Shown in pieces: positions 1,076-44,650 of a DNA stretch of 64,000 nt. Below the pieces are notes generated by a model, which saw only the letters and a list, made by a program, of their open reading frames with translations, had not been told where the DNA came from and ran no database searches. This DNA comes from an uncultured virus (IMG/VR IMGVR_UViG_3300016482_000014). Taxonomy: Duplodnaviria; Heunggongvirae; Uroviricota; Caudoviricetes. Each line of letters begins with the position of its first letter. Position 1 is the first letter of the stretch. Made by a program: the position numbers and the translations under genes. The DNA is taken from IMG/VR virus record IMGVR_UViG_3300016482_000014, positions 1 through 64,000 of that record. One strand, 5' to 3'.

Positions 1076-2893
1076 TTAGCTAGTGAGAGCTTGGAGTTGG
1101 AGATTCGTGCAACGGATAGGGTAGTAGGCGAGCTTTTTGATTGTTCCTGCAAGTGCATAGGATGCACTAGGAGCAGCAGCATAACCACCAATAAATAATG
1201 TGGTGGGTAACGTTGCTGAAGGGACAGCAGCAGATGTATCTGTAGATACCGCACCAGAATTTAAACTACCTGCAATATCGTCAATTTTGTAAGTACCAGC
1301 AACTTTAAATGGGTTATTAGCCGAGACAACCCCAAGTGTTAGATTTGCCGTATACGCCCCGTTCACAACAACCCCAAATTTTGCATTAGTGTTAAGAACT
1401 GTCATTTCAATCCCTTGAGAGGACGGTAAATATGCCGTTGCAATAGCAACTCCGCCAGTTGGCTTTGATGTCACCGCCTCCGCATACAACGTCCCCTCAT
1501 CCGCCCGATACCAGCTAGAGAAGTTCGTCCCCGTCATACTAGCCGCATCTGCACTCCGTGTAACTTGGCTTGCTTCGGTTTTGATGTAGCTGGTAGCGAA
1601 TGAGCCAGCTTCGAGTTGTGCGCCCCAGATGTAGATGCCGGAGTAGCCGTCGCCTGCGTAGGAAACAGACGTACCGCTTGCCGTAGCAAAGTTTGCGTAA
1701 TATGTTGTTGCTGTTGCAGTGCGAGATACGGATACTCTAAACCAACCGTTACCTACGTTTGTAATTGAATTTACCGTGTACTCGGCTGGCATTGATCCGC
1801 TAACCGTTCCAGTGCTTAGATTGATATATGCCCATGTATTACCGGAGGTATCAAACGTAAAAGCAATAGTTGTTCTTTCTCCCGCTTTTGCATAAAACGA
1901 CAAAGTGTATGAAGCTGCTGTTAATATTTTACCTTGATAAACCTGATGCGGCGAACTTGACGTATTTTCTACCAGCTTTTCCCCAGTCAAAGTCCCATCC
2001 GGCGCAACAATAATATTAGCAGTTACCGTTGCATTCCCTTTTGTCCAAGCAGCATTATCAAACTGCTCGCTATACGTCAGCAAATTCGTCCGCTGCTCCT
2101 CCACCCTCAACCCCAAGCTCTCGCCTGTCACCGGATTGTGGTCAAACCGTGCTACGTTAGCTGGTGCAGACAGCAGAGTGGGGATGTAATTGGTGATAGG
2201 CTGAGTCGTGGTAGGCGTGTAGGCAGAGACGGATGAACGCTGTTCGAGTTGTGCGCCCCAGAGGTAAATGCCAGAGGTGCCGTCGCCTGTATATGTGTAA
2301 GCAGAAGGATCGCCAGAAGTATAACTGGCATCCATAATGTAAATGCCGATTCCTTGACTTGCGCTTGCAGTAGTTGGGGTTAGTACAATTCGATACCATC
2401 CATTAGCAAGTGCTGTTATTGATGCTGTAGTGCCACCAGTTTGAGCAATAACTGTGCCAGTTGATGTTGCATCAAAGGTTGCGTATTGACCGCCAACATA
2501 ATCCTCTCTGATACCAACTTTTGTGTATCCGTTTGGCTTAACAAAAACAGAGTAAGTATGAACAGCCGCCGCCGTATTTCCTGCTTGCCTTAAAACATGA
2601 TATCCAGAAGATGCGTTTGGAGTTGCTGTATCAGCAGTTGTTGTTCCGTCTGGTGCGGCGGTAGAGTTTGCTGTAACAGTAACGCCACCTGATTGAGTCT
2701 TTCCCCAACTGGCATTATCAAACGTCTGAGATTGCAACAGCAGATTCTCCTCCGCCTTCGCCACCGTCTTGCCGTCATAGACAACGGCGGTTGAAGCTCT
2801 GGAAAATGTAATTCTTGGATCCAATACCTTGGCGTTAGCGAAGTCCAGCAAGAGCGAAGGTTTTATCGGACTAAAGTTGTCTTTAACGCTCAT
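1076..2893 (-). CDS. Virion spike/fibre protein with duplicated beta-sandwich domain
   Basis: S/T/A/G-rich; two copies of NLL..S..FDNA.W...APDGT.T...GW(Y/F)R...GDG.SGIY.WGAQLE. Confidence 0.7.
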   Translation of the reverse strand: MSVKDNFSPIKPSLLLDFANAKVLDPRITFSRASTAVVYDGKTVAKAEENLLLQSQTFDNASWGKTQSGGVTVTANSTAAPDGTTTADTATPNASSGYHVLRQAGNTAAAVHTYSVFVKPNGYTKVGIREDYVGGQYATFDATSTGTVIAQTGGTTASITALANGWYRIVLTPTTASASQGIGIYIMDASYTSGDPSAYTYTGDGTSGIYLWGAQLEQRSSVSAYTPTTTQPITNYIPTLLSAPANVARFDHNPVTGESLGLRVEEQRTNLLTYSEQFDNAAWTKGNATVTANIIVAPDGTLTGEKLVENTSSSPHQVYQGKILTAASYTLSFYAKAGERTTIAFTFDTSGNTWAYINLSTGTVSGSMPAEYTVNSITNVGNGWFRVSVSRTATATTYYANFATASGTSVSYAGDGYSGIYIWGAQLEAGSFATSYIKTEASQVTRSADAASMTGTNFSSWYRADEGTLYAEAVTSKPTGGVAIATAYLPSSQGIEMTVLNTNAKFGVVVNGAYTANLTLGVVSANNPFKVAGTYKIDDIAGSLNSGAVSTDTSAAVPSATLPTTLFIGGYAAAPSASYALAGTIKKLAYYPIRCTNLQLQALTS

Positions 2894-3600
2894 TTTTTAC
2901 TCCATTCAAATTTGTAGCCCGCTGTGTGATGCATTTCTTTATTACACACCATCGTGACGCAACGCCTGTGAAGTCCAAGCCGTCTTGCCGCATCGTTTAT
3001 AGAAAAATACGTTTGACCGTTTGTAATGCAATATACAGGTTTTGATTTACCGTGCGACGCGTATGTTTGCAATAAGGATTCCCTGATTTTTGCCTTTGCT
3101 TGTTCAGAGTGAGTTCTTTGCCCTGACTTCAATCGTAGCAGCTCTTTGGTTTTTTCTGTATGCCGTTTCCCAAAAAACGGGTTTTCTGCTCCAGTGAGCT
3201 TACCCTTTTTGGATGCCCTCATCTTCTCAACCATTTCAATTGGTCTTGGCACACCAGTCTTTGCTGCTGATATTTTATTTTTGTGATCCTCTGACATTTT
3301 AAATGTATACCCAGAAGATCCTTCACCGCCATCCGTCTTGTTAACAAGATAGACGCCAAGCCTACGATATTTGTCTATAGCTTCGGCTTCGCATAAAAAT
3401 GCAAGTTCTTCCGTAATATCTTTTGCAAGATAGCGGACTTTTACGCCATTTGCTTTTTTTACTACGTTTTGCCAGTGTGCGTTTCTTTTGCTTCTTGTCG
3501 TCGCCCTGTAGCCACGCCCCTTGCCAACGTAAAACACCGCACCCGTATCAGGTCGTATGTGTTCGTAAACGTAGTACTTTGGCTTTGTATTCACGATCAA
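2890..3600 (-). CDS. GIY-YIG family homing endonuclease with NUMOD3-like repeats
   Basis: YYVYEH...FYVGKG..R, N.TDGGEG, NPFFGKRHTEKTKE, C-terminal YFSINDAARRLG HTH; start may be GTG 3594. Confidence 0.85.
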   Translation of the reverse strand: MIVNTKPKYYVYEHIRPDTGAVFYVGKGRGYRATTRSKRNAHWQNVVKKANGVKVRYLAKDITEELAFLCEAEAIDKYRRLGVYLVNKTDGGEGSSGYTFKMSEDHKNKISAAKTGVPRPIEMVEKMRASKKGKLTGAENPFFGKRHTEKTKELLRLKSGQRTHSEQAKAKIRESLLQTYASHGKSKPVYCITNGQTYFSINDAARRLGLHRRCVTMVCNKEMHHTAGYKFEWSKK

Positions 3601-3650
3601 TCCAGCAGGAGCGATGGACGAGTTGTCGGAAAGTTATCTTTTACGCTCAT
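3597..3650 (-). pseudogene. Orphaned original 5' end of the 1076-2893 gene (MSVKDNFPTTRPSLLLD*)
   Basis: 17 codons matching the N-terminus MSVKDNFSPIKPSLLLD of 1076-2893; has RBS AAGGA. Confidence 0.85.
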
Positions 3651-3808
3651 GGCATATCCTTACTTTTATCTTGCTGAAGCTGGTTATCCGCTTGCTCTTT
3701 TATCTTCACCAAAAGCGTCCAGGCTCCAGATGATGTTGGCAGTTGACCTAGCGTCTGCAAAATGGCGTTAACATCCTCTACCTTCAGCTTTAGTGTAATT
3801 TCCATCAT
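3647..3808 (-). CDS. Small tail-region protein (53 aa)
   Basis: Manual translation MMEITLKLKVEDVNAILQTLGQLPTSSGAW...; ATGA overlaps on both sides. Confidence 0.7.
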   Translation of the reverse strand: MMEITLKLKVEDVNAILQTLGQLPTSSGAWTLLVKIKEQADNQLQQDKSKDMP

Positions 3809-4101
3809 GCCACCCAAGGAATCCCAGATTCTTTAACAGGATTCTTTTGTGCATCAATCTGTGCTGCCAAACTTGCTTCAGCAGCCGCCTTATCCACTCC
3901 ATTAGCCCAACACCAGTCAAGTACATCTTGCTCTGTAACATTGGCGTATGGAACCTGTGGGTCAGCATCAGCAAAGCTGCAAGTGCTGTATACGGATGCT
4001 GTGTAGTCACCGTCAACAGCCGTACACGTCCAGTGGGCAACGGTGATAAAGCCAGTGGCAACGATATGCTCGCACTGAGTGATTTTCCAGTTGTATTCCA
4101 T
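3805..4101 (-). CDS. Small tail-fibre-associated protein
   Basis: 98 aa, RBS AAGGAA, follows fibre gene. Confidence 0.65.
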   Translation of the reverse strand: MEYNWKITQCEHIVATGFITVAHWTCTAVDGDYTASVYSTCSFADADPQVPYANVTEQDVLDWCWANGVDKAAAEASLAAQIDAQKNPVKESGIPWVA

Positions 4102-4110
4102 GATTGTTCC

Positions 4111-5307
4111 TTACCAAGTTGAAATCGCAGAGCGTTTCCAAGTGTTTGTTGCCACGCATACATAAACGTAGTTTGAATCCCAACAAATATCACCGGCGTT
4201 ACCAGTATCTGTTGAGGATGCAGGAGTCTTTGTAGTACGAACACGAACAACGTTAGAGTTGACGTCTAGTTTTGCTGTAGGCGAATTCGTACCAATCCCC
4301 ACGTTGCCGGAAGTGTCGAGTGTCAACTGAGCCGCAGACAAAAGGGTAGCGTCTTGATAGTTTGCCAGACCACCAGTGTTGCCAAAAATAAGGGAGGTGG
4401 CAACAGCAGAAACAAACATCTCTCTACTTCCTGCCCGGAACAGTGACAGCACTGGGGCATTATCTGCTATTACGTCGCCGTATATGCGCAGTGTGTTTTG
4501 CGCAACTACACCACTTTGACCAATCCACGCATTACCGAGAACTTGTAGTTTCTGTTGAGGCGAACTCGTACCAATCCCCAGTCCGGTAGAGGTGAGGCGC
4601 ATAACCTCTCCGACTGCGTTTCTATACCAAAGCAAATTTCCTTGATCGTTGTAATTTAGCCAGTATGTGTTACTCGTAGAGTCAGAAAGTGAAATACCAG
4701 CATACTGCCCTCTAATAGCAAGCCCCGGAACGCCAGCCAAATAACTACTTGGGCTATTTGTTCCAATACCAAAATTCGTCCCATCAAACGTCAGCGCACT
4801 ATCAGTCGTCAGAACCTTAGACGCATTGAGATACGCTACAGCGTTGGCTGTTCCAGCAGAAAATGTCGGGTTATTGGTAATCGTGCTGATCTGTCCGGAC
4901 ACGATGTTGACGCTATCGTTGTCCTCATACGCCATTGAACCGAGATACTGGTTCAGCGGGATCTGGTTTGGAGCCGTGCCTGTGTCAGCCTGAGATACCG
5001 ACATATCTGCCGGGTAGGTGACAAACACATCCTTGCTGCCAGAACCAAAGTTCACCAACGCATTCGCATTCGATGAGCGCAACACCTGTGTACGGGCAAG
5101 CGTGGTTGCGCCTGTCAGCGTACCAATACCCACTTCCCACGCGCCACTGACGGCATCTGCAATGGTGTAGTATGTCTGGTTGTTGACGCCGATCCCAGCG
5201 TTGAATGTCTGGAACCCAGAGGGTGCGCCTGAAAGCGTGACCGACCCTGTTCCAGTGGTGGAGGTTAATTCCCTAACCCGGTCGTTTACGATAATAGCCA
5301 TCGCCAA
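4111..5307 (-). CDS. Tail fibre protein
   Basis: N-terminal DRVRE.T.TTGTG anchor; three GIGT.SP repeats; C-terminal WDSNYVYVCVATNTWKR. Confidence 0.8.
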   Translation of the reverse strand: MAMAIIVNDRVRELTSTTGTGSVTLSGAPSGFQTFNAGIGVNNQTYYTIADAVSGAWEVGIGTLTGATTLARTQVLRSSNANALVNFGSGSKDVFVTYPADMSVSQADTGTAPNQIPLNQYLGSMAYEDNDSVNIVSGQISTITNNPTFSAGTANAVAYLNASKVLTTDSALTFDGTNFGIGTNSPSSYLAGVPGLAIRGQYAGISLSDSTSNTYWLNYNDQGNLLWYRNAVGEVMRLTSTGLGIGTSSPQQKLQVLGNAWIGQSGVVAQNTLRIYGDVIADNAPVLSLFRAGSREMFVSAVATSLIFGNTGGLANYQDATLLSAAQLTLDTSGNVGIGTNSPTAKLDVNSNVVRVRTTKTPASSTDTGNAGDICWDSNYVYVCVATNTWKRSAISTW

Positions 5308-35100: not shown

Positions 35101-37719
35101 TCGCCGCAGCTATCAGGGAGAGAGTGAAATGAGTAATGCTGATTGGTTTAGTTTGGTATCAATGATGTTTGTTGCCCGTGCTGTACCGACAAACACCGCT
35201 GTTTTGTCTGCGTTTGTGTTTGCTGTTAGCTCTTTTATTTTGAGGTATTTATGACTGACCGAGAAGCCAACGCCCGATTGATCGCCGCCGCACCGGATTT
35301 GTTAAATGCGCTAACAGTATTTGCAGACGCCTGCGAACGAATGGGTATACCAGTTGACGCCGCTAAAGCCGCAATCGCAAAAGCAAGAGGTGAATCATGA
35401 AATACAAAAACGAAAGTGCTTTCCCCGGATTACATCCGTCTAAAGATTGCCAATATAACGACCCCGGAATGACCTTGCGTGACTACTTTGCGGCTAAAGC
35501 GCTACCTGCCGCATATCGTGATCTTTGGGATGACGTTCGTGCGGGTAGAACAGACCGTGTGCCCGAAGACTGGCGATTCGGCGTTGCAGTTGAGGCGTAC
35601 AAGATGGCAGACGCAATGTTGAAAGCAAGAGGAGAATGAAATGAAACCATTTGATTTAGAAGCCGCCAAGCGTGGCGAACCAATCCAGACTCGTGATGGA
35701 CGACCAGTGAGGTTTATTGCTCATGTGCCGAATGCGTATTTAAATCAGAGAGTAGTTGTGTTGATGGATCGTGCCATTCAATTCACATCAGAAAATGGTT
35801 ATTTTATATCCGATGAAGAAAAATCATCTTGGGACTTGGTTATGGCTCCCCGCAAGCGCACGGTGTGGGTGAATTTGTATCGCCCTAGAGATTACGATTA
35901 TTTATGTCAAAACATGCCAGCGTCTGCATATGACAACGAAAACGAAGCCAATAACGCTATTTCTAGCTATGTACGCATCGGCAACCGTGCATGGCCCTTG
36001 GAGATTGAAGAATGACTGACAACTGGCGATTCCGTGTGAATTGGCGAGGCAAGCTGATACTGCAACGATGGCGCAAATTTAGACATAGCAAGGATTGATT
36101 GGAGTTTACATGGCGTGACGCTGACGTGACCGACCTTGCTGATTTTTATATGGAGAATAGAAATGACTAAAGACGAAGCGTTAAAGCTGGCGTTGGATGC
36201 GTTGGTTGATTTTGGATGGCACATTGAGAATTGCCCACAGTTTCCAACTTGGGCTGAACCAAAAAAGCATCCATCATGTACATGTGGATATGACACGGCA
36301 ATCACCGCACTACGCCAAGCACTTGAGCAGCCGGAGTGCAACCCTCACCCAGACGCACCGCATGGGTTTAATCGTGAGTCATCGCACAGTCTTGGCAGGT
36401 ATGTCTGTGACTGCGAGGGATGGGAGCCAGAGCCTGTGGCATTTGCGAGCATAAAAAACGGATACCCAGATGCTTGGGTATGGAACCCTGAGTATGTAAA
36501 AGCCAATCCTAACATTCAACTCAAGCTCTACACCGCACCACCCAAGCGTGAGTTTATCGGGCTGACGGATAAGGAGATTGCAGAAGGAGCAAAGCAAAGT
36601 TGGGTAGACAGGCAAGCATTTGAGTCTGCCGTTTGGTGGGCAGAGGAAAAACTGAAGGAGAAGAACCGTGGATGAACAAACCGATACCCCCAACTTACTG
36701 GCTGACGCTTATGAACGGGCTGATTTTGTTTCGGTTAAAGGTCAACGTGGGCCTTGGTTACGAATCACTGAGGCTGGCGGTCTGACGCTGGTTGCGAGGT
36801 GGGTGCGTAATGACTTGATTGTGGAGGGGGAAAAATGATTACGTTCATCGCTTGGTATTTTGTTGTGGTTGCGGCGCAAGACAGGCCGCTGTCAATATCA
36901 ATGCCGTTCCCGACGAAGGAGGCTTGTGAGGTGCTGGAGAAGTTTCACAATTCAGTTTCTTTCGTAAGCAATAGTCGTGCGAAGTGCGTACAGCTTGAGG
37001 TGATCAAATGAACCCGAACGAACTACCCCTCACCGAGGAAGAAGAACAAGCATGGCAGGACATGGAACACAAGCGGGTCGGAGAGTACCTGCAACGTGCT
37101 CAGCTTGAGTCCGTCAAATTTACCAACGACTACCAACACGAACTACCAATCATGACGTTGCGCAAGGCCTTTGAGTTGGGCTTTCGTCGTGGTTATTCAT
37201 ATTCACAAGGAGAGAAAAATGGCAATGCCAAAAGGTAAGGTACACGACAAGTATGCGCCCAAGTCATTACAGGAGTGCATCGAAATACCGCACAAACCGA
37301 TTCAGTTGATCGCTGAGTTGTTTCTGTCAGGCAAGGAGTTTAGTGTGGGTCAACTGGCGAAAGCCATGAAGCTATCAAACACGAACGCAAGGATACAGCT
37401 CGACTTCCTGATCAAACATAAACTTGTTTATTTACATCGTTGGGACAAGACGCACTCACACAACTGGACAGCGATGTTCATAGCGGGGGACAAACCTCAC
37501 GCCCCAAGCCCCAACATGAAGAATGCGCTGACGATCAAGAAGCCCGAGCCACCACCGCCCCCACCACCAAAACCACTGTCGGCTACCGCAGCAGACGCCG
37601 CTGCACAACTGGCACACCTGAAAGAACTTGCCTCGGCATTGGTGCCGATCCGTACACCAGAGGAACAACATGCGGTTAACTGGGCATACTGGGAACATCT
37701 CGCAGGGAGAGCAGCATGA
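32166..37719 (+). CDS. Array of about 20 small coupled accessory ORFs (e.g. 32166-32375, 32372-32557, 32920-33279, 33276-33539, 33646-33954, 33951-34310 with DUF551-like C-terminus, 34303-34641, 34788-35132, 35251-35400, 35397-35639, 35641-36015, 36163-36675, 37008-37238, 37219-37719)
   Basis: Dense ATGA overlaps and RBSs; recurrent modules GMTLRDYFA, LALEALE, ANARLIAAAPDLL, EACAK. Confidence 0.6.
34622..34791 (+). pseudogene. Frameshifted small gene
   Basis: RBS+ATG frame (MNNKIAELVAAE) differs from the frame carrying AAENEACAKVCD...AIRERMK*, which ends in an ATGA overlap with the next gene. Confidence 0.55.
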
Positions 37720-38099
37720 ACGAGACGATAAAAGATATGATTGGTGAGATTGAAAAAAACGACCGCACACGCCGATTAGTAGAAATGAGCATGAACGCAT
37801 ACAACCCCTTACCAATGAACCCCGAAGTCCAACAGGCAATCAAAGAGAAACTCGATGCAGCCAAGGCGAAGGAGCGGCAGGAAGGTGGTGAGCATTACAA
37901 GCAGATGGGTGTGCAGCCGTGGGATGTCATCGACACATGGCCTATCGAGCAACAGATTGGGTACCACCGTGGTAATGTGCTGAAGTACACCATGCGCCTA
38001 GGCAACAAAGACGAGCGACTGCAAGAAGCCAAGAAGATCAGGCACTACGCCGACAAGTTAATTGAAGTACTGGAGAGATCAAATGGCAGCGACCCCTAA
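37716..38099 (+). CDS. DUF3310-like protein
   Basis: QEGGEHYK...QPWDVI...G...GNVLKY..R...K....KI.HY. Confidence 0.75.
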   Translation: MNETIKDMIGEIEKNDRTRRLVEMSMNAYNPLPMNPEVQQAIKEKLDAAKAKERQEGGEHYKQMGVQPWDVIDTWPIEQQIGYHRGNVLKYTMRLGNKDERLQEAKKIRHYADKLIEVLERSNGSDP

Positions 38100-38115: not shown

Positions 38116-38160
38116 TTCATGTGTTATACTCCATACAGCAATTTATATTCTGGAGTTAAT

Positions 38161-38793
38161 ATGCGACCAAATCAGCTTGTTGGTATACGGTTTAATCGAT
38201 TAACAGTTGTTGCGGATGGAGGGCGCGACGCAAAGAAAAACGTACTATGGTTGTGCGTCTGTGATTGTGGGGGCAAAGCATTAGCTCCAGCATATGACTT
38301 AAAGGCTGGAAAAGTTAAATCCTGTGGGTGCTTATCTAAAGAAGGTAACCATCGCACACACGGTCACGCCCGTAAAGGTAAGAAGCGGAACCCAACATAC
38401 AGCCTATGGGCAACCATGATTCAAAGGTGCACAAACCCAAACGATAGAAGTTGGGCGGCATATGGTGGCAGAGGTATAGAGGTATGTAAGTCATGGCTTA
38501 CGTTTGAAGGTTTTTACGCTGATATGGGGGATAAGCCAAAGGGGCTTACGCTGGAACGTATCAACGTAGACAAAGGTTACAACAGGAAGAATTGCGTGTG
38601 GGCTACGCAACATGCACAAGCAAGGAATAAACGATCTAATGTGTGGGTGACTATTGATGGCGAATCAAAAATTCTGTCAGATTGGGTAGAGTACATTGGG
38701 GTGACAAAACCAGCGATTTACTACCGTAAACATAAAAAGCAGGAATCATATGAACAAATCGTGCGTTATTTTTTAAATCAACGGAGGGCATGA
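38161..38793 (+). CDS. HNH-type homing endonuclease
   Basis: WLCVCDCG...SCGC...W..M..RC...YGGRGI.VC..W..FE.F..DMG...TLERI.....Y...NC.WAT...Q.RN. Confidence 0.9.
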   Translation: MRPNQLVGIRFNRLTVVADGGRDAKKNVLWLCVCDCGGKALAPAYDLKAGKVKSCGCLSKEGNHRTHGHARKGKKRNPTYSLWATMIQRCTNPNDRSWAAYGGRGIEVCKSWLTFEGFYADMGDKPKGLTLERINVDKGYNRKNCVWATQHAQARNKRSNVWVTIDGESKILSDWVEYIGVTKPAIYYRKHKKQESYEQIVRYFLNQRRA

Positions 38794-39083
38794 TGGCAGA
38801 GACAAAAGAGGGGGCTGTAAAGCGTAAAGTCAAGAAAGCGCTTGATGCGTTCGGTGCGTACTACTTCATGCCGATTGGTGGGCCGTACTCCCGTGCGGGT
38901 GTACCAGATATTGTAGGGTCGTATCGAGGAAAGTTCTTTGCCATCGAGTGTAAGGCTGGCAGGGGCAAACCCACGGCACTACAAGAGAAAGAGATCACAG
39001 CGATCAATGCGTCTGGTGCAAAAGCTATCGTAGTGAATGAAGACAACTTGGACGATGTAGCCAAGTTACTGGAGAGTTTGTGA
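38790..39083 (+). CDS. VRR-NUC nuclease
   Basis: E..VK, GVPDI, AIECKA....T.LQ. Confidence 0.85.
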   Translation: MMAETKEGAVKRKVKKALDAFGAYYFMPIGGPYSRAGVPDIVGSYRGKFFAIECKAGRGKPTALQEKEITAINASGAKAIVVNEDNLDDVAKLLESL

Positions 39084-40963
39084 TGGATTTGATTACGTTT
39101 GATGCCGAGACTTACTACGACCCTGAATACTCCTTGCGCAAATTGACCACCGAGCAGTACATCCGTGACCCACGTTTCGAGATGATTGGTTTTGCGATCA
39201 AGGTCAACGATGGCCCAACCGAGTGGTATACCGGTGACAAAGAGCATCTCGCATGGGTGCTGAGCGCGATTGACTGGAGCCGTGCGGCGCTGCTGTGCCA
39301 AAACACCGCATTTGATGCGGGGATACTATCATTCATCTTCGGGATTCAGCCCAAGCGGATGTTGGACACCATGTCGATGGGACGCGCAGCGCTCGGTGTG
39401 GACGTAAGCGTATCGCTGGAGAACCTAGCCAAGCACTATGGGGTCGGAGTCAAGGGTGATGAGGTGATCCACGCCCAAGGCAAACGCCGCAAGGACTTCA
39501 CGCCAGAAGAACTTGCCCGCTACGGACAGTACTGCATCAACGATGTGGATCTGACATACGAGGTGTATCACCGGATGATACAGAACGGGTTTCCGTTGCC
39601 AGAGTTAAAGCTGATCGACATGACCCTGCGGATGTTCACTGACCCACGACTGCATCTGGACACGGACTTACTGAAACAACATCTACAGGAAGTCAGGGCG
39701 GCGAAGCGGCAGCACTTGGTCAACACCCTTGAGGCAATCGGCAAGCCAGAACTTGCAGCCCTTGCCATGATGGACGGGGAGTCAAGCGAACCCATACAGA
39801 AAGCGTTGCGCTCAAATGACCAGTTTGCTGACCTGTTGGAGTCACTCGGTGTACCTGCCCCGACCAAGATCAGCCAGACGACAGGTAAGAAGACTTGGGC
39901 GTTTGCCAAGACCGATGACGGGTTCAGGGCATTGCAAGAACATCCAGATACGAGAGTACAGGCAGTTGTCGCTGCACGGTTGGGGGTCAAGACCACGCTG
40001 GAAGAGACCCGCACTGAACGGTTCATCGAGATGAGCGCCAGAGGTAAGTTTCCCATCCCGCTGAAATACGCAGGTGCCCGGACATATCGCTGGAGCGGCA
40101 TGGATTCAGTGAACCTTCAGAACCTGCCAAGCCGGGGGGACAATACCCTCAAGCGGGCAATTCAGGCACCGGAGGGGTATGTGATTGTCGGTGCTGACCT
40201 ATCCAACATCGAATTGCGGGTTGGTCTGTGGTTGGCCAAACAGATGGACAAGTTGGCGATACTGGGTGGTGGTGCGGATCTGTATAAGGACTTTGCTGCA
40301 AAGGTGTTCGAGGTGCACTATGCGGAAGTGACTAAAGAGCAGCGGTTCATCGGCAAGACCTCGCAGTTGAGTCTGATCTACGGTGTCGGTGCGGGTAAGC
40401 TGCGCCAAGCCATCAAGATCGGATCCGGCACGGACATTGGTGAGGCAGAATCCAAGCGTATCGTTGACTTGTACCGGCAGCAATACCACTTTGTAAAAAC
40501 ATCTTGGGAGGAAGGTGAGAACGCACTGGAGTGCATCTTACACAACCGCCAGCGAAGCTACGGCAACCGAGGCCTTGTCAAAGTGCACGGCAAGACGGGA
40601 TGCCTCCTGCCGTCAGGGTTGTATTTACGGTACCCAGAACTGCAGCGTATCAAGGAAGATGGCAAACAGAAGTGGGTGTACCAGACTCGCAAGGGGAGGG
40701 AATACCTGTATGGAGCGAAGTTCTTTCAGGGACTGGTGCAGAGCCTAGCCCGCTGTGTGATGGGTGAGCAGATGCTGGCGATCAGCAAGAAGTACCCGAT
40801 CGTGTTGACGGTACATGATGCTGTGTATATCCTAGCGGAGCAAAGCGACGCAGAAGCGGCTATGGATTTCATGCTGAAGGAAATGCGCACACCCCCGGCT
40901 TGGATGCCCGACATACCATTGGATGCAGAAGCGGCTTTTGGATCAACCCTTGCGGACTGTTAA
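39080..40963 (+). CDS. polA: Family A DNA polymerase with 3'-5' exonuclease
   Basis: DAETY exo I; NLQNLP; motif A DLSNIELR; motif B K...L...YG; motif C VHD. Confidence 0.92.
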   Translation: MMDLITFDAETYYDPEYSLRKLTTEQYIRDPRFEMIGFAIKVNDGPTEWYTGDKEHLAWVLSAIDWSRAALLCQNTAFDAGILSFIFGIQPKRMLDTMSMGRAALGVDVSVSLENLAKHYGVGVKGDEVIHAQGKRRKDFTPEELARYGQYCINDVDLTYEVYHRMIQNGFPLPELKLIDMTLRMFTDPRLHLDTDLLKQHLQEVRAAKRQHLVNTLEAIGKPELAALAMMDGESSEPIQKALRSNDQFADLLESLGVPAPTKISQTTGKKTWAFAKTDDGFRALQEHPDTRVQAVVAARLGVKTTLEETRTERFIEMSARGKFPIPLKYAGARTYRWSGMDSVNLQNLPSRGDNTLKRAIQAPEGYVIVGADLSNIELRVGLWLAKQMDKLAILGGGADLYKDFAAKVFEVHYAEVTKEQRFIGKTSQLSLIYGVGAGKLRQAIKIGSGTDIGEAESKRIVDLYRQQYHFVKTSWEEGENALECILHNRQRSYGNRGLVKVHGKTGCLLPSGLYLRYPELQRIKEDGKQKWVYQTRKGREYLYGAKFFQGLVQSLARCVMGEQMLAISKKYPIVLTVHDAVYILAEQSDAEAAMDFMLKEMRTPPAWMPDIPLDAEAAFGSTLADC

Positions 40964-41156: not shown

Positions 41157-41825
41157 ATGCCTCAAGTAGCATGGTCGTTTTCTGCCCTCAAGACGTTCCA
41201 ATCCTGCCCCAAGAAGTACTACCACTTGAAGGTGGCCAAGGACGTAAAAGAGCAGCAGTCAGAGATCATGCTGTACGGTATCGATGCGCACAAAGCCGCA
41301 GAGTTGTACATCGCAAACAATCAGGAACTACCCGGAAAGTACGAGTTCATGCGTAAGCAGCTCGACAAACTCAAGGCGCTGGACGGGGATAAATACTGTG
41401 AGTTTAAGTTTGGCTTGACCAAAGAAATGCAACCCTGCGACTTTTTCGGTAGTAACGTTTGGCTGCGGGGAGCAATCGATTTATTGGTTGTGAACACCGA
41501 GAAGGGTATTGCCCGGATGATTGACTACAAGTTCGGCAAGTCAAAAAACGCTGATATGAGCCAATTGCAGTTGATGTCGCTGGCGGTGTTTAAGATGTTC
41601 CCTGAAGTCCAAAAGGTGAAAGCTGGCTTGCTATTCTGCGCAGAGGATAAGATGATGCCCATTCAATATGAGCAATCCAACGCGCCAACTATGTGGATGG
41701 ACTGGTTGCCAGAGGTTGCCAGATTGGAAGCAGCATACGAAAATAACGTGTGGAACCCCAACCCATCGGGGCTGTGCAAAGCGTGGTGCCCGGTGGTATC
41801 CTGTACACATAACGGGAAACGATGA
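41157..41825 (+). CDS. Cas4/RecB-like PD-(D/E)XK exonuclease
   Basis: WS.S....F..CP, G...H, G.IDL, IDYK.GK, C..CPV..C. Confidence 0.85.
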   Translation: MPQVAWSFSALKTFQSCPKKYYHLKVAKDVKEQQSEIMLYGIDAHKAAELYIANNQELPGKYEFMRKQLDKLKALDGDKYCEFKFGLTKEMQPCDFFGSNVWLRGAIDLLVVNTEKGIARMIDYKFGKSKNADMSQLQLMSLAVFKMFPEVQKVKAGLLFCAEDKMMPIQYEQSNAPTMWMDWLPEVARLEAAYENNVWNPNPSGLCKAWCPVVSCTHNGKR

Positions 41826-42094
41826 TGGCTAGAAACTACAAGCGTGAATACGAGCTGTACCACGACACGGAAGAGCAAAAGAAAAACCGTGCCAAGCGTA
41901 ACAACGCCCGTCGTCGTATGGAGCGTGAAGGCAAGGTTAGCAAGGGCGATGGTAAAGATGTAGATCATCGTCAACCACTGTCCAAGGGTGGTGGTAATGG
42001 CAAGAGCAACCTGCGGGTTGTCGATGCCAACAAGAACAGATCGTTTAGTCGTAACCCCGACCGGTCGGTCAAGCGCAATACCCCCAAGAAGTAA
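41822..42094 (+). CDS. Small HNH endonuclease
   Basis: GDGKDVDH..PLSKGG....NLRV.....NRS. Confidence 0.8.
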   Translation: MMARNYKREYELYHDTEEQKKNRAKRNNARRRMEREGKVSKGDGKDVDHRQPLSKGGGNGKSNLRVVDANKNRSFSRNPDRSVKRNTPKK

Positions 42095-42166
42095 TACCGA
42101 CTGGTAGTAGCAGTACCCCGTGCGACCCAAAGACCACTTTTGGGCGTTACGCTATTGGAGAGCAAT

Positions 42167-44650
42167 GTGGAAGTCATCGAGAACAAAGCGCTGAAGATGC
42201 GCCTGCGCAACCCCCACCGGGTGCTGGAAGTCATACCAAAGAGCAAGATCATCGAGCAGTACGAAGATGGCACAAGCGATGTGCTGGTTCACTGGTCGTT
42301 GGAAGCCGCTCAGGTATTGAAAAACTTGCGCATCAAAAACGTGCCATCCCCCATCATGGCCAAGTACAAGTGGCCGGGGACACGAGAGCCGTTCACACAC
42401 CAGAAGCAAACCGCAGCGTTCCTCACCCTCAACCGCCGTGCGTTTGTGTTGTCTGATCCGGGTACCGGGAAAACACTCAGCATGATATGGGCGGCGGACT
42501 ACCTGATGAACATCAAGCAGATCAAACGGGTACTGGTGATCTGCCCAGTGTCGGTGATGAAAGCCGCTTGGGTGAATGATTTGTTTCATGGTGCGATGCA
42601 CCGCACAGTTGCAGTGGCACACGGTACACGCCAACAACGCAAAGACGTGCTGGCAGAGAACACGGAGTTTGTGATTATCAATTTTGATGGTGTCGAGCTT
42701 TTGCTGCCCGAGCTACAGGAAGCTGGGTTTGATATGGTCATCATCGATGAGGCAAACTTCGTCAAGACCGCAACCACAAACCGCTGGAAAGCCATCAACA
42801 AACTGATTCGCCCTGACACATGGCTTTGGATGGCTACGGGTACTCCGGCTTCACAGTCACCGCTTGACGCATACGGGCTGGTCAAAATGATGCACCCGTC
42901 CACCGCCCCAAGATCGTTTGGTATATACCGTGACATGGTGATGAGTAAAGTCACCACATTCAAGTGGGTTCCCAAGCGTGATGCTAACAGCATTGTCAAT
43001 CGGATGCTGCAGCCCGCCATCAGATTTACCAAAGAAGACTGTCTGGATCTGCCAGATATCCTGTACACCACACGCGAAGTACCGTTGACCAAACAGCAGT
43101 GGAAACTCTATGAGCAGTTGCGAAAGAGTATGGCAGCGCAAGTTGCTGGAGAAACCATCAGTGCCGTGAACGCAGCCGTTGGTTTGCAAAAGTTATTGCA
43201 GGTAAGTTGTTTGAGTAGTGACACCCAAGTGTTGACGGACTCGGGATGGAAATATATACTCGATGTTACTACCTGTGATAACTTATGGGATGGTATTGAG
43301 TGGGTGTCACATGGTGGGGTTGTGCACAAAGGAAAGCGGCATACGTTGAATTTATCCGGGGTGCGGATGACCGGAGACCATCAGGTACTTACCGTATCAG
43401 GGTGGCACACTTGCAAGGAGATCATCGATGGGGCGAGTAGCAATAGATTTGAAAGGGCAACGGTTCGGATTCCTGACGGTTTTGGGGCGCAGTGGGTCTA
43501 CGGGACACCGCTGTGCAACATGGCTATGCCTGTGCGACTGTGGGAACAAGGTCGTGAGAAAGAGTCAAAGCCTACGAAGCAAAAATCGCCCATTAGGGAA
43601 CCATTGTGGATGTCAGGCGTTTGCGTACAACCGGGTTCATGGGATGACCCACTCCCGCCCATTCAAAATATGGTCAAGTATGCGGCGTCGGTGTTTAGAC
43701 AAACGGGACAAAGACTACAAAAATTATGGCGCACGGGGGGTAACAGTTTGCGACCGTTGGGTAAACTCATTTACCAATTTTTGGGAGGACATGCAGAGTG
43801 GGTATCGGGATGGGCTTACATTAGATCGGAAGAACAACAACGGGCCATACAACCCAGAAAACTGTTGGTGGGCGACCCCCAAACAGCAAGCAAACAATAC
43901 CCGGACAAATCAAATAATTATGACCCCAAAAGGAGCGATGAATATATCTCAAGCAGCAGAAGCGTATGGGATCAAAATGATTACATTACACGCCCGAGTA
44001 TATCGCTACAAATGGTCAATAGAAAAAGCGTTAACCCACCCAACTGGTCGGAAGATGTCTACGACATAATTAACGCAGGCCCCAGAAACCGCTTCACAGT
44101 TTTAGGAAACGACCGCCCGTTCATAGTACACAACTGTGGCACGGTGTATACGGATGACAAATCCACGGTTGAGCTGGATATCAGCGAACGATTCAAGGTA
44201 CTGGAAGAAGTGATCGACAGCACCGACAACAAGGTGCTGGTGTTTGTCCCGTATACGAATACGTTGGAAGTGTTGCAAGAGAAACTGCTTGCCAAAAAAT
44301 ACACGGTGGATGTGATCTACGGCAAGATCAGTGCTGGCAAACGCGCAGACGTTATCAAGCGATTCCAAGAGCAACCAGACCCGAGGGTGCTGTTGATACA
44401 ACCACAAGCTGCATCACATGGAATCACGCTACACGCTGCAGACACAATCGTGTGGTGGGGGCCGATCATGTCATACGAAACATACGTGCAAGCCAATGCC
44501 CGTATCCATCGCGCAGGACAAAAGAACAAATGCTTGGTGGTTCGACTACAAGGCAGTCCGGTGGAAGAGAAGCGCTACAAGGCGCTCGATACCTGCGAAG
44601 ACACGAACGAAAGTTTGTTGGAGATGTTCAAGCAAGTATTGACAATGTAA
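42167..44650 (+). CDS. SNF2-family helicase interrupted by an intein
   Basis: DPGTGKT, IIDEA, TGTP, HGITL, QA.ARIHR.GQ; GTG start after GGAGAG. Confidence 0.9.
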   Translation: MEVIENKALKMRLRNPHRVLEVIPKSKIIEQYEDGTSDVLVHWSLEAAQVLKNLRIKNVPSPIMAKYKWPGTREPFTHQKQTAAFLTLNRRAFVLSDPGTGKTLSMIWAADYLMNIKQIKRVLVICPVSVMKAAWVNDLFHGAMHRTVAVAHGTRQQRKDVLAENTEFVIINFDGVELLLPELQEAGFDMVIIDEANFVKTATTNRWKAINKLIRPDTWLWMATGTPASQSPLDAYGLVKMMHPSTAPRSFGIYRDMVMSKVTTFKWVPKRDANSIVNRMLQPAIRFTKEDCLDLPDILYTTREVPLTKQQWKLYEQLRKSMAAQVAGETISAVNAAVGLQKLLQVSCLSSDTQVLTDSGWKYILDVTTCDNLWDGIEWVSHGGVVHKGKRHTLNLSGVRMTGDHQVLTVSGWHTCKEIIDGASSNRFERATVRIPDGFGAQWVYGTPLCNMAMPVRLWEQGREKESKPTKQKSPIREPLWMSGVCVQPGSWDDPLPPIQNMVKYAASVFRQTGQRLQKLWRTGGNSLRPLGKLIYQFLGGHAEWVSGWAYIRSEEQQRAIQPRKLLVGDPQTASKQYPDKSNNYDPKRSDEYISSSRSVWDQNDYITRPSISLQMVNRKSVNPPNWSEDVYDIINAGPRNRFTVLGNDRPFIVHNCGTVYTDDKSTVELDISERFKVLEEVIDSTDNKVLVFVPYTNTLEVLQEKLLAKKYTVDVIYGKISAGKRADVIKRFQEQPDPRVLLIQPQAASHGITLHAADTIVWWGPIMSYETYVQANARIHRAGQKNKCLVVRLQGSPVEEKRYKALDTCEDTNESLLEMFKQVLTM
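43208..44134 (+). mobile_element. Intein (309 aa)
   Basis: LLQVS|CLSSDTQVLT..GW (block A), MTGDHQVLT (block B), VYDI (block F), IVHN|C (block G, Cys+1). Confidence 0.93.
43428..44069 (+). CDS. HNH-type homing endonuclease nested in +1 frame inside the intein
   Basis: RBS AAGGAG 43415-20; WLCLCDCG...CGC...W.SM..RC...YGARG..VC.RW...F..DM...TLDR.NN.G.Y.P.NC.WAT...Q.NN. Confidence 0.9.
   Translation: MGRVAIDLKGQRFGFLTVLGRSGSTGHRCATWLCLCDCGNKVVRKSQSLRSKNRPLGNHCGCQAFAYNRVHGMTHSRPFKIWSSMRRRCLDKRDKDYKNYGARGVTVCDRWVNSFTNFWEDMQSGYRDGLTLDRKNNNGPYNPENCWWATPKQQANNTRTNQIIMTPKGAMNISQAAEAYGIKMITLHARVYRYKWSIEKALTHPTGRKMSTT

Follow-up and report, generated by a model that had tools for sequence, protein, structure and literature searches.

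In a 64,000-nucleotide stretch of DNA from an uncultured virus of the Caudoviricetes (positions 1 to 64,000 of IMG/VR record IMGVR_UViG_3300016482_000014, referred to here as the window), we found a phage SNF2-family helicase gene that contains, at positions 43208 to 44134, an insert likely to be a mobile intein of the type present in the Hamiltonella phage APSE-1. Overprinted on this intein in the +1 reading frame is a second gene, which would encode the homing nuclease of the element independently of the helicase. The source record of the window is a complete 66,013-bp IMG/VR virus record with direct terminal repeats.

Anatomy of the interrupted helicase gene

The host gene, the intein, and the overprinted gene are laid out as follows, with the basis of each assignment in parentheses.

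42140..44650, + strand: SNF2-family helicase precursor gene, a single open reading frame (ORF) of 836 aa with the intein and a predicted 527 aa once spliced
42140..43207, + strand: N-extein, with the C-terminal end ...KLLQVS (alignment with intein-less helicases)
43208..44134, + strand: intein of 309 aa, Cys1 to His-Asn (exact alignment gap; same ends in 26 relatives; AlphaFold2 [AF2] model)
43208..43495, + strand: N-terminal splicing domain, intein residues 1 to 96, with blocks A and B (T55/H58) (predicted local distance difference test [pLDDT], conserved columns, substitution pattern)
43415..43420, + strand: AAGGAG, a putative Shine-Dalgarno sequence formed by intein codons K70-E71 and placed 7 nt ahead of the ATG at 43428 (sequence reading)
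43428..44069, + strand: +1-frame gene for a 213-aa HNH-like nuclease with Zn-ribbon cysteines, a beta-beta-alpha core, and a C-terminal helix-turn-helix (phrog_374, AF2)
43496..44035, + strand: intein-frame reading of the nuclease gene, a linker of about 180 aa, residues 97 to 276 (low pLDDT, poor conservation)
44036..44134, + strand: C-terminal splicing domain with blocks F and G, VYDIINAGPRNRF ... FIVHN (pLDDT, conservation, third-position bias)
44135..44650, + strand: C-extein, whose first codon is the +1 Cys (44135-44137) (alignment; the closest empty allele, L089, also has Cys)

Pfam recognized a SNF2-rel_dom domain (aa 104-343, E = 1.7e-23) and a Helicase_C domain (aa 684-793, E = 8.8e-18) on either side of the insert, and the precursor matched the phrog_62 DNA helicase family (E = 9.8e-99). 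Near-identical DNA was not found among GenBank phages. In alignments with the intein-less helicases of Pseudomonas phage Rollin and Rhizobium phage RHph_TM3_14A, the gap fell exactly at 43208-44134, giving the junctions KLLQVS/C...HN/CGTVY, and the helicase frame was open throughout this interval. The splicing residues were all present, namely, C1 (in the start CLSSDT), T55-G-D-H58 (TGDH, block B), H308-N309, and the Cys at +1, with block F reading VYDIINAGPRNRF. Among 23 aligned relatives, C1, T55, H58, and N309 were invariant and H308 nearly so.

An AF2 model built on these 23 relatives showed mean pLDDT values per 10-residue block of 93 to 97 at residues 1 to 70, followed by 72, 80, and 53 across residues 71 to 100, and of 93 to 96 at residues 281 to 309. 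Values fell below 50 at residues 97 to 184 and 189 to 276, and no such stretch preceded residue 97. When the model was compared by VIA-align with 48,161 solved chains, the 28 top-scoring chains were all intein, Hint, or Vint domains (Z 8.6 to 13.8), the best being gp41-1 6riz (Z 13.8, root mean square deviation [rmsd] 2.1, 111 aa) and NpuDnaB 4o1r (Z 13.7). The pLDDT values and the fold matches together predict that the two ends of the intein form a HINT splicing domain, with a middle that lacks a confident fold. Conservation followed the same division in the alignment of relatives (A5), with conserved splicing-domain columns at both ends and a poorly conserved middle. Read in the intein frame, the middle matched no Pfam, NCBIfam, or PDB sequence, and a PDB sequence search with the intein returned nothing at E ≤ 1.

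The +1-frame ORF matched phrog_374, phrog_3377, and phrog_2081, with E values from 3.8e-60 (phrog_374) to 3.3e-28; all three are labeled "HNH endonuclease," PHROG labels being annotations and not tests. Its stop codon, TAA (44067-44069), spans intein codons I287/I288 and lies within block F. An AF2 model based on 82 homologs had a pLDDT of 91.7 and comprised an N-terminal beta domain, strands at 131-134 and 146-149, a helix at 151-156, and C-terminal helices. In the alignment of the same 82 sequences, the Zn-ribbon cysteines C36, C38, C60, and C62 were invariant or nearly so, as was W148; R134, Y141, and N145 were invariant, Q154 and N157 were nearly invariant, and the window ORF kept every invariant column. 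One sigma-70-like site was predicted at 43232-43260, but five such sites in the region against 3.4 ± 2.1 expected do not constitute evidence for an internal nuclease promoter.

A first-pass annotation made by a model from the letters alone had described much of this layout: a 309-aa intein with intact splicing blocks, a middle without recognizable endonuclease motifs, a complete 213-aa HNH-type ORF in the +1 frame, an AAGGAG embedded in intein codons K-E, and a nuclease stop overlapping block F. All of these features were recovered where it had placed them.

Selection in two overlapping frames

Substitutions were counted by codon position in four pairs of inteins sharing more than 70% nucleotide identity (L001/L022, L011/L012, L019/L030, and L071/L087; range, 70 to 98%). 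These are relatives rather than the window copy, and all four pairs align without gaps. Intein position 1 corresponds to nuclease position 3. The substitutions at intein positions 1/2/3 were as follows.

N-terminal splicing domain, before the nuclease ORF: 39/28/102
First 25 nuclease codons: 33/15/11
Middle: 254/104/72
C-terminal splicing domain: 10/4/32

The third-position peak thus switches frame within the element: purifying selection acts on the intein frame in the two splicing domains and on the nuclease frame in the region that separates them. The intein-frame amino acids of the middle drift, limited only by the need to avoid stops and indels. A frame-by-frame measure of selection had been proposed in the first-pass annotation as a check of its reading, and these counts supply it for the four pairs of relatives.

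The absence of stops from the intein frame is likewise hard to attribute to chance. It had been estimated from the letters alone that some 213 additional codons would remain free of stops with a probability of (61/64)^213, about 4e-5, and selection had been proposed on that basis. We reproduced the figure, and two further calculations agreed with the proposal. When the nuclease protein was held fixed and its codons were shuffled synonymously, the intein frame acquired a mean of 9.6 stops, and zero stops, the observed number, occurred in 0 of 20,000 shuffles. Back-translation with the codon usage of the exteins gave a mean of 8.9 stops and a P(0) of 5e-5. The third frame over the nuclease ORF contained 17 stops against 16.6 expected. 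Shuffles performed locus by locus gave P(0) ≤ 0.025 in all 13 loci computed among the 27 with a nested nuclease described below.

How the intein frame is kept open can be read from codon choice. Because of the frame relation, a stop arises in the intein frame only if a nuclease codon ending in T precedes a codon starting with AA, AG, or GA. At such positions, T-ending codons numbered 0 of 1283 in nested genes and 1077 of 3883 (28%) in free-standing genes, and elsewhere in the nested genes 873 of 4131 codons (21%) ended in T. Since T-ending codons are completely avoided where they would matter, the intein frame stays open by synonymous choices alone, with no amino-acid cost to the nuclease. The sequence comparisons indicate that double coding in this element is maintained by selection.

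Relatives, insertion sites, and empty alleles

To place the locus among its relatives, we surveyed the best 80 of at least 597 viral-contig matches to the nuclease, together with the window and three GenBank phages, and obtained 91 tblastn nuclease stretches of at least 140 aa from 85 loci. In 27 stretches, the frame one base upstream contained no stops and belonged to an ORF of 224 to 1278 aa (nested class); the other 64 had 1 to 46 stops in that frame, with a median of 16 (free-standing class). The nuclease ORF was open across the matched stretch in all 27 nested cases. Complete intein ends (C1 ... [H/S]N/C, 281 to 319 aa) were present in 26 of them, the 27th ending at a contig edge, and these 26 inteins shared the motif C[LIV]A..T.VLT ... 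VYD[LI].N[AC]GPR.RF ... [LF]IV[HS]N/C.

By Pfam, the 23 IMG/VR host ORFs comprised 7 SNF2 helicases, 14 family A polymerases, and 2 without a match (L043 and a short fragment with which the L016 contig begins); DNA polymerase is the annotation of all three GenBank hosts. The intein occupied at least five insertion sites, as follows.

SNF2 helicase, KLLQ[VI][SC]/C: window, L009 to L012
Second helicase region: L013, L014, L016
Family A polymerase, ..GK[LS]/CEN.. or ..GLA/CEN..
Family A polymerase, three residues further, ..EN/C.QA.
L043, in a host protein without a Pfam match

GenBank members of the family are APSE-1 to APSE-7, the Caulobacter phages GB2A, RW, RLK, and KcrB, and the Shewanella phage SFCi1. 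In the cultured phages APSE-1, GB2A, and SFCi1, the polymerase ORF is open and a nuclease ORF of 213 to 224 aa lies in the +1 frame. The first-pass annotation had likened the intein to that of the APSE-1 DNA polymerase, supposed a wider overlooked class, and suggested looking for +1 HNH ORFs in homologous inteins; the APSE-1 P45/P46 pair and the 27 nested stretches among the 91 show the same layout and confirm the likeness and the existence of a wider class. Shine-Dalgarno-like strings followed by ATG or GTG precede the conserved nuclease N terminus in the window and the listed loci. In several of the listed relatives, the purine-rich string ahead of the nuclease start coincides with codons of the conserved intein motifs DH(E/K)VLT or (E/K)GW.

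A quick IQ-TREE phylogeny of the 91 nuclease stretches placed all 27 nested nucleases in one set of 31 rows (support by the Shimodaira-Hasegawa-like approximate likelihood ratio test [SH-aLRT], 97), the 4 others being free-standing. The nested or free-standing label changed twice on the tree, compared with a mean of 23 changes in shuffles. This pattern is consistent with a single ancient capture of a free-standing gene and later dispersal of the composite element to new sites; a single origin is not proven, because the tree is unrooted and carries SH-aLRT support only. The four free-standing nucleases inside the set (L048, L079, L026, and L042) have no flanking intein pieces and may be either escapes from inteins or the closest free-living kin of the nested genes.

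Forms in which nuclease and intein are arranged otherwise were also sought. No split-intein pieces were found beside free-standing relatives (tblastn, E ≤ 1e-3), and no in-frame version of the nuclease inside an intein occurred among the 91 stretches. The long nuclease-frame ORFs of L038 and L042, considered as candidate in-frame fusions, turned out to be GC-rich read-through and not intein sequence. Among nine longer database proteins there was no intact in-frame intein fusion, an absence that by the search's own warning is weak evidence. One of the nine, P0002 (634 aa, from one Logan contig), reads through the helicase and the N-terminal domain of an intein at the same site and then continues in the nuclease frame as far as the stop of the nuclease gene; it represents a dead allele with a frameshift or else a misassembly.

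Several arrangements in related phages were observed in passing. The L016 contig carries two nested intein-nuclease units, one at 3-674 before a polymerase-like C-extein and the other at 1809-4235 in an SNF2 helicase. The helicases at L011:252-3602 and L013:586-3888 contain a second, different intein further upstream, which matches the Pfam Hint and Intein_splicing models (aa 196-485 and 169-462, respectively). In the polymerase intein of the Jerseyvirus Salmonella phage vB_SenS_S528 (L169:2501-3466), a 247-aa ORF (2593-3336) matching phrog_374 (E = 1e-47) lies in the +2 frame; the polymerase ORF (1160-4258) is open, and the N-terminal splicing domain of the intein is 42% identical to that of the window over 81 aa. 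As 145 Salmonella phage records match the intein query, the hidden +2-frame layout may be very common in cultured phages.

The window itself holds a free-standing paralog of the nuclease in its replication module.

38119..38793, + strand: free-standing nuclease paralog (phrog_374, E = 4.7e-64, for the ORF at 38161-38790)

The paralog is 32 to 34% identical to the nested copy, is interrupted by 19 stops in the frame corresponding to that of an intein, and falls outside the tree set holding all nested nucleases. It had been proposed that a free-standing endonuclease of the same family as 38161-38793 invaded a mini-intein. The family identity stands, since both genes match phrog_374, but a recent capture from that paralog does not: given the low identity and the position of the paralog outside the nested set, the two-frame state must have arrived together with the intein. 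The paralog is preceded by a nucleotide-kinase-like gene (37716-38099) and followed by a gene for a small Hjc-like endonuclease (38790-39083; Pfam Hjc, E = 1.3e-4; phrog_93, E = 7e-17), and it lies directly upstream of the phage family A polymerase gene (39080-40963), which has no intein. Just upstream of the helicase gene, a 90-aa ORF (41822-42094) has the pattern ...DVDH..PLSKGG..N...N..., which by eye resembles a small HNH motif; the ORF matches only phrog_4590, a family of unknown function (E = 3.3e-22), and no Pfam family.

The insertion site was uninterrupted in all 79 IMG/VR helicase relatives that retain both flanks, the closest of which (L089) reads KLLQVS/CGAVY with flanks about 86% identical to those of the window. 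In public sequencing data, a Logan contig assembled from the same reads, those of the probable source run, shows 0 differences and 0 gaps relative to the window across 43000-44300. Contigs of three runs from three other studies (X2, X3, and X13) instead join position 43204 to position 44150 through 18 other bases, a net loss of exactly 927 bases. In this intein-less allele, the +1 residue is Ser, and 9 of the 18 bases around the insertion point (window 43205-44149) are different. Its upstream flank is about 91% identical to the window (18 differences in 204 bases), and its downstream flank is about 99% identical (1 difference in 151 bases). The diverged site could mark a cleavage-resistant target, a recombination boundary at the element, or both. 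Run X2 also contains intein-bearing contigs, covering 43217-43466 and 43551-44029 at 92 to 95% identity without indels and at a depth of 3.5 to 3.8, compared with 15.2 for the intein-less contig. Since one run holds both types of contig, intein-bearing and intein-less alleles coexist in one sample. Such presence and absence is the pattern expected of a homing element, in which cleavage would generate it.

Proposed mechanism, alternatives, and known systems

Starting from the observed anatomy, its conservation, the frame-specific selection, the predicted HINT fold, and the empty-site alleles, we infer separate translation, splicing, and cleavage with homing, which may operate together as follows. 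Ribosomes translating the helicase would read straight through the entire insert. The approximately 96 N-terminal and 33 C-terminal residues would assemble into the HINT splicing domain, and the off-frame linker of about 180 residues would be a by-product, excised together with the intein by protein splicing. That the intein splices is suggested by its intact motifs and by the selection that keeps the host frame open. Other ribosomes would start at 43428 with the gene's own Shine-Dalgarno sequence and ATG and produce the 213-aa HNH-like nuclease, a member of a family that is mostly free-standing in phages. Its most probable target is the intein-less allele, cut at or near LLQVS/CG(T/A)VY, and repair of the break would copy the intein in. 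The first-pass annotation had already proposed a separately translated nuclease whose off-frame product is disposed of by splicing, and the comparative evidence lends this reading support.

Several results weigh against this account. Curated intein profiles miss the window intein (Pfam, E ≤ 0.1; NCBIfam, E ≤ 1), from which the APSE-type family appears to be divergent; the same Pfam models do match the second intein in the hosts of L011 and L013. The first of the canonical HNH catalytic residues, a His, is not conserved in the nuclease alignment, which has none where strand 1 ends. The invariant Tyr could replace it, as has reportedly been proposed for PacI. The nuclease has no HNH match in Pfam, NCBIfam, or PDB sequences (PDB, E ≤ 1), and a Foldseek search of its model against the PDB gave no match at E ≤ 0.001. 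The best VIA-align chain, the HNH restriction enzyme PacI (3m7k; Z 5.9, rmsd 2.7, 75 aa, model residues 70 to 159), is a weak match below the tool's caution line of Z 8 and is the sole fold support for the HNH label. No characterized family member with demonstrated nuclease activity was found in the literature searched, and the nuclease label is less secure than the existence of the gene itself. No RNA record with this sequence was found among the listed public runs; run X13 is labeled RNA-Seq, is probably DNA, and holds the intein-less allele only. The empty alleles of X2, X3, and X13 need not be cleavable, because 9 of 18 bases differ around the site and +1 is Ser. Lastly, P0002 shows that the two-frame state can break or be misassembled.

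These points leave room for other readings of the locus. The +1 protein might be made without being the homing enzyme of the intein, for example, as a DNA-binding regulator or as a nuclease directed against competitor phages that shelters in a gene the phage cannot lose. A protein with a Zn ribbon and a helix-turn-helix, whose HNH assignment depends on PHROG labels and a weak PacI match and whose free-standing relatives occur in many contexts, could have such a role. However, nuclease and intein travel jointly over at least five sites in two host-gene families and one host without a family match, as would be expected of a nuclease that mobilizes its intein, and presence and absence alternate exactly at the intein borders, so that we consider a non-homing role unlikely. 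A somewhat smaller chance attaches to the nuclease ORF of this copy being a relic, unexpressed or inactive, in an intein late in its homing cycle, whose frame is open only because the helicase is needed. The lack of an RNA record among the listed runs, the rarity of the intein in its host-gene family implied by 79 of 79 empty relatives, and the missing HNH histidine would all suit a relic, but the ORF is full length, keeps every invariant column of its 82 homologs, and is preceded by a strong Shine-Dalgarno sequence and ATG. Moreover, purifying selection acts on the nuclease frame of the middle in the four related pairs (254/104/72), none of the 27 nested ORFs is interrupted within its matched stretch, and both alleles are present in one sample.

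Two further readings concern how the two frames are connected. The nuclease could be made as a fusion by ribosomal frameshifting out of the intein frame instead of from its own start codon, as P0002, which passes from the helicase and the N-terminal intein domain into the nuclease frame, might be taken to indicate. P0002 is only one of the nine longer matches, and it looks like an indel or an assembly error because it has lost the first Zn-ribbon pair and comes from one contig; Shine-Dalgarno-like strings with ATG or GTG, by comparison, precede the nuclease N terminus in the window and the listed loci, which makes a frameshift product very improbable. The window being a metagenome assembly, two compensating sequencing or assembly indels could in principle disguise an ordinary in-frame HNH intein. 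This is effectively refuted: the same +1 relation recurs in 27 stretches of independent records, including the cultured phages APSE-1, GB2A, and SFCi1; four intein pairs at 70 to 98% identity are gap-free, as is the identical Logan contig; and the nuclease gene begins at a start codon of its own and ends within block F. A mobile APSE-1-type intein carrying an overprinted homing-nuclease gene thus remains the reading we favor.

Whether the whole family has this character is a broader matter, on which we see the case as evenly balanced: the APSE-type intein and its overprinted gene may constitute an old, monophyletic, and obligately two-frame mobile element, in which case overprinting would be common and long-lived, and many phage inteins would hide a separately expressed homing gene. 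If so, the element has moved among five or more sites, in helicase, polymerase, and other phage genes, and its stability would come from the +1 relation, in which synonymous choices suffice, and from the block B codons that supply the ribosome-binding site of the nuclease. Taken with the Jerseyvirus +2 version, such an element would imply a concealed homing gene in many phage inteins whose annotation now reads mini, degenerate, or "endonuclease-less." The present comparisons show that a gene can lie over an intein in a second frame and persist while the sequences diverge widely and the host gene changes several times, cheaply by virtue of the codon rule. Annotation pipelines miss such nested genes and label the inteins endonuclease-less, and a catalogue of the family (APSE, Jerseyvirus) would correct many records. 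The family may also offer a mini-intein that tolerates an unstructured insert of about 180 residues and a set of nucleases with candidate target sites.

The closest known counterpart is in APSE-1 (NC_000935/AF157835), where the intein of polymerase P45 belongs to the same family as the window intein (31% identity over all 309 aa, E = 8e-36) and the nested P46 to the same family as the window nuclease (40% identity, E = 1e-41), in the same +1 relation. The annotated P46 is a shorter internal piece. The APSE-1, Caulobacter, and Shewanella members have their nuclease stop just before or in block F, as in the window. The host genes differ, being a family A DNA polymerase in APSE-1 and an SNF2 helicase in the window. 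RefSeq annotates both overlapping APSE-1 coding sequences, P45 as DNA polymerase and P46 as "HNH endonuclease." No paper describing P46 as an out-of-frame endonuclease of an intein was found in a search that did not cover the 1999 genome paper, and the available parts of two APSE genomics papers make no mention of P46 lying within an intein. Nor was a paper found that describes the APSE-type intein family; related polymerase inteins may appear in the supplementary tables of bioRxiv 10.1101/2025.01.02.630785.

The concept of an out-of-frame intein endonuclease is itself published. Gosselin, Arsenault, and Gogarten (bioRxiv 10.1101/2025.01.02.630785) reported actinophage inteins whose endonuclease is read in another frame or from the antisense strand, including an endonuclease VII-like gene "in frame 3," proposed invasion by free-standing genes, and predicted that such inteins are under-annotated. 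Like the window intein, theirs are contiguous, with intact splicing domains and an in-frame middle without recognizable predicted structure. Their hosts are terminase, polymerase, minor capsid, and thymidylate synthase genes, and the same-strand case is the endonuclease VII-like one in "frame 3," whereas the window combines a phrog_374 HNH-like nuclease in the +1 frame with an APSE-type intein and a helicase host. The available text of that preprint contains 0 occurrences of "APSE," and no mention of APSE was found in the available text of Dassa et al. 2009 (PMC2677866) or Arsenault et al. 2025 (PMC11855218). Phillips, DeSimone, and Gogarten (bioRxiv 10.64898/2026.09.14.751524) described an out-of-frame LAGLIDADG gene in a dnaX intein, which resembles the window in its overlapping ORF, in the coexistence of intein-free and intein-bearing alleles, and in its frame-dependent selection, with low dN/dS in the endonuclease frame and relaxed selection in the intein frame. 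It differs in that the endonuclease is of the LAGLIDADG family, is read as a "+2ORF," and lies in a gene of a bacterial chromosome and not of a phage. Gorbalenya 1998 is cited by both preprints.

Two other arrangements bracket the window element. In the fractured genes of Dassa et al. 2009 (PMC2677866), for which the model includes intein invasion, split intein halves flank a free-standing endonuclease gene. As in the window, the endonuclease insertion point of the intein is occupied by an endonuclease gene of the free-standing type that has a start of its own, but there the host gene is broken into two ORFs joined by trans splicing. The single 836-aa ORF rules out that the window is a fractured gene of this kind. 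The ShiLan element of Arsenault et al. 2025 (PMC11855218) is a hidden out-of-frame HNH gene in a mycobacteriophage DNA methylase gene without an intein. It resembles the window in leaving the host ORF free of stops, and its HNH gene starts a few codons into the insert and stops at the insert's end. Lacking splicing domains, ShiLan leaves the off-frame peptide in the host protein, whereas the complete intein of the window would remove such a peptide.

The first-pass annotation had held its arrangement to be neither an in-frame domain nor a fractured gene. As to layout it was right, given one ORF and a +1 gene, but the novelty implied is not supported in view of the two preprints (10.1101/2025.01.02.630785 and 10.64898/2026.09.14.751524). 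Because the concept itself is not new, the value of the present case lies in breadth and mechanistic detail: what it adds to the known systems is the nuclease family, a helicase as host, a view of how large and coherent the APSE-type family is, and the codon rule that keeps the host frame open.

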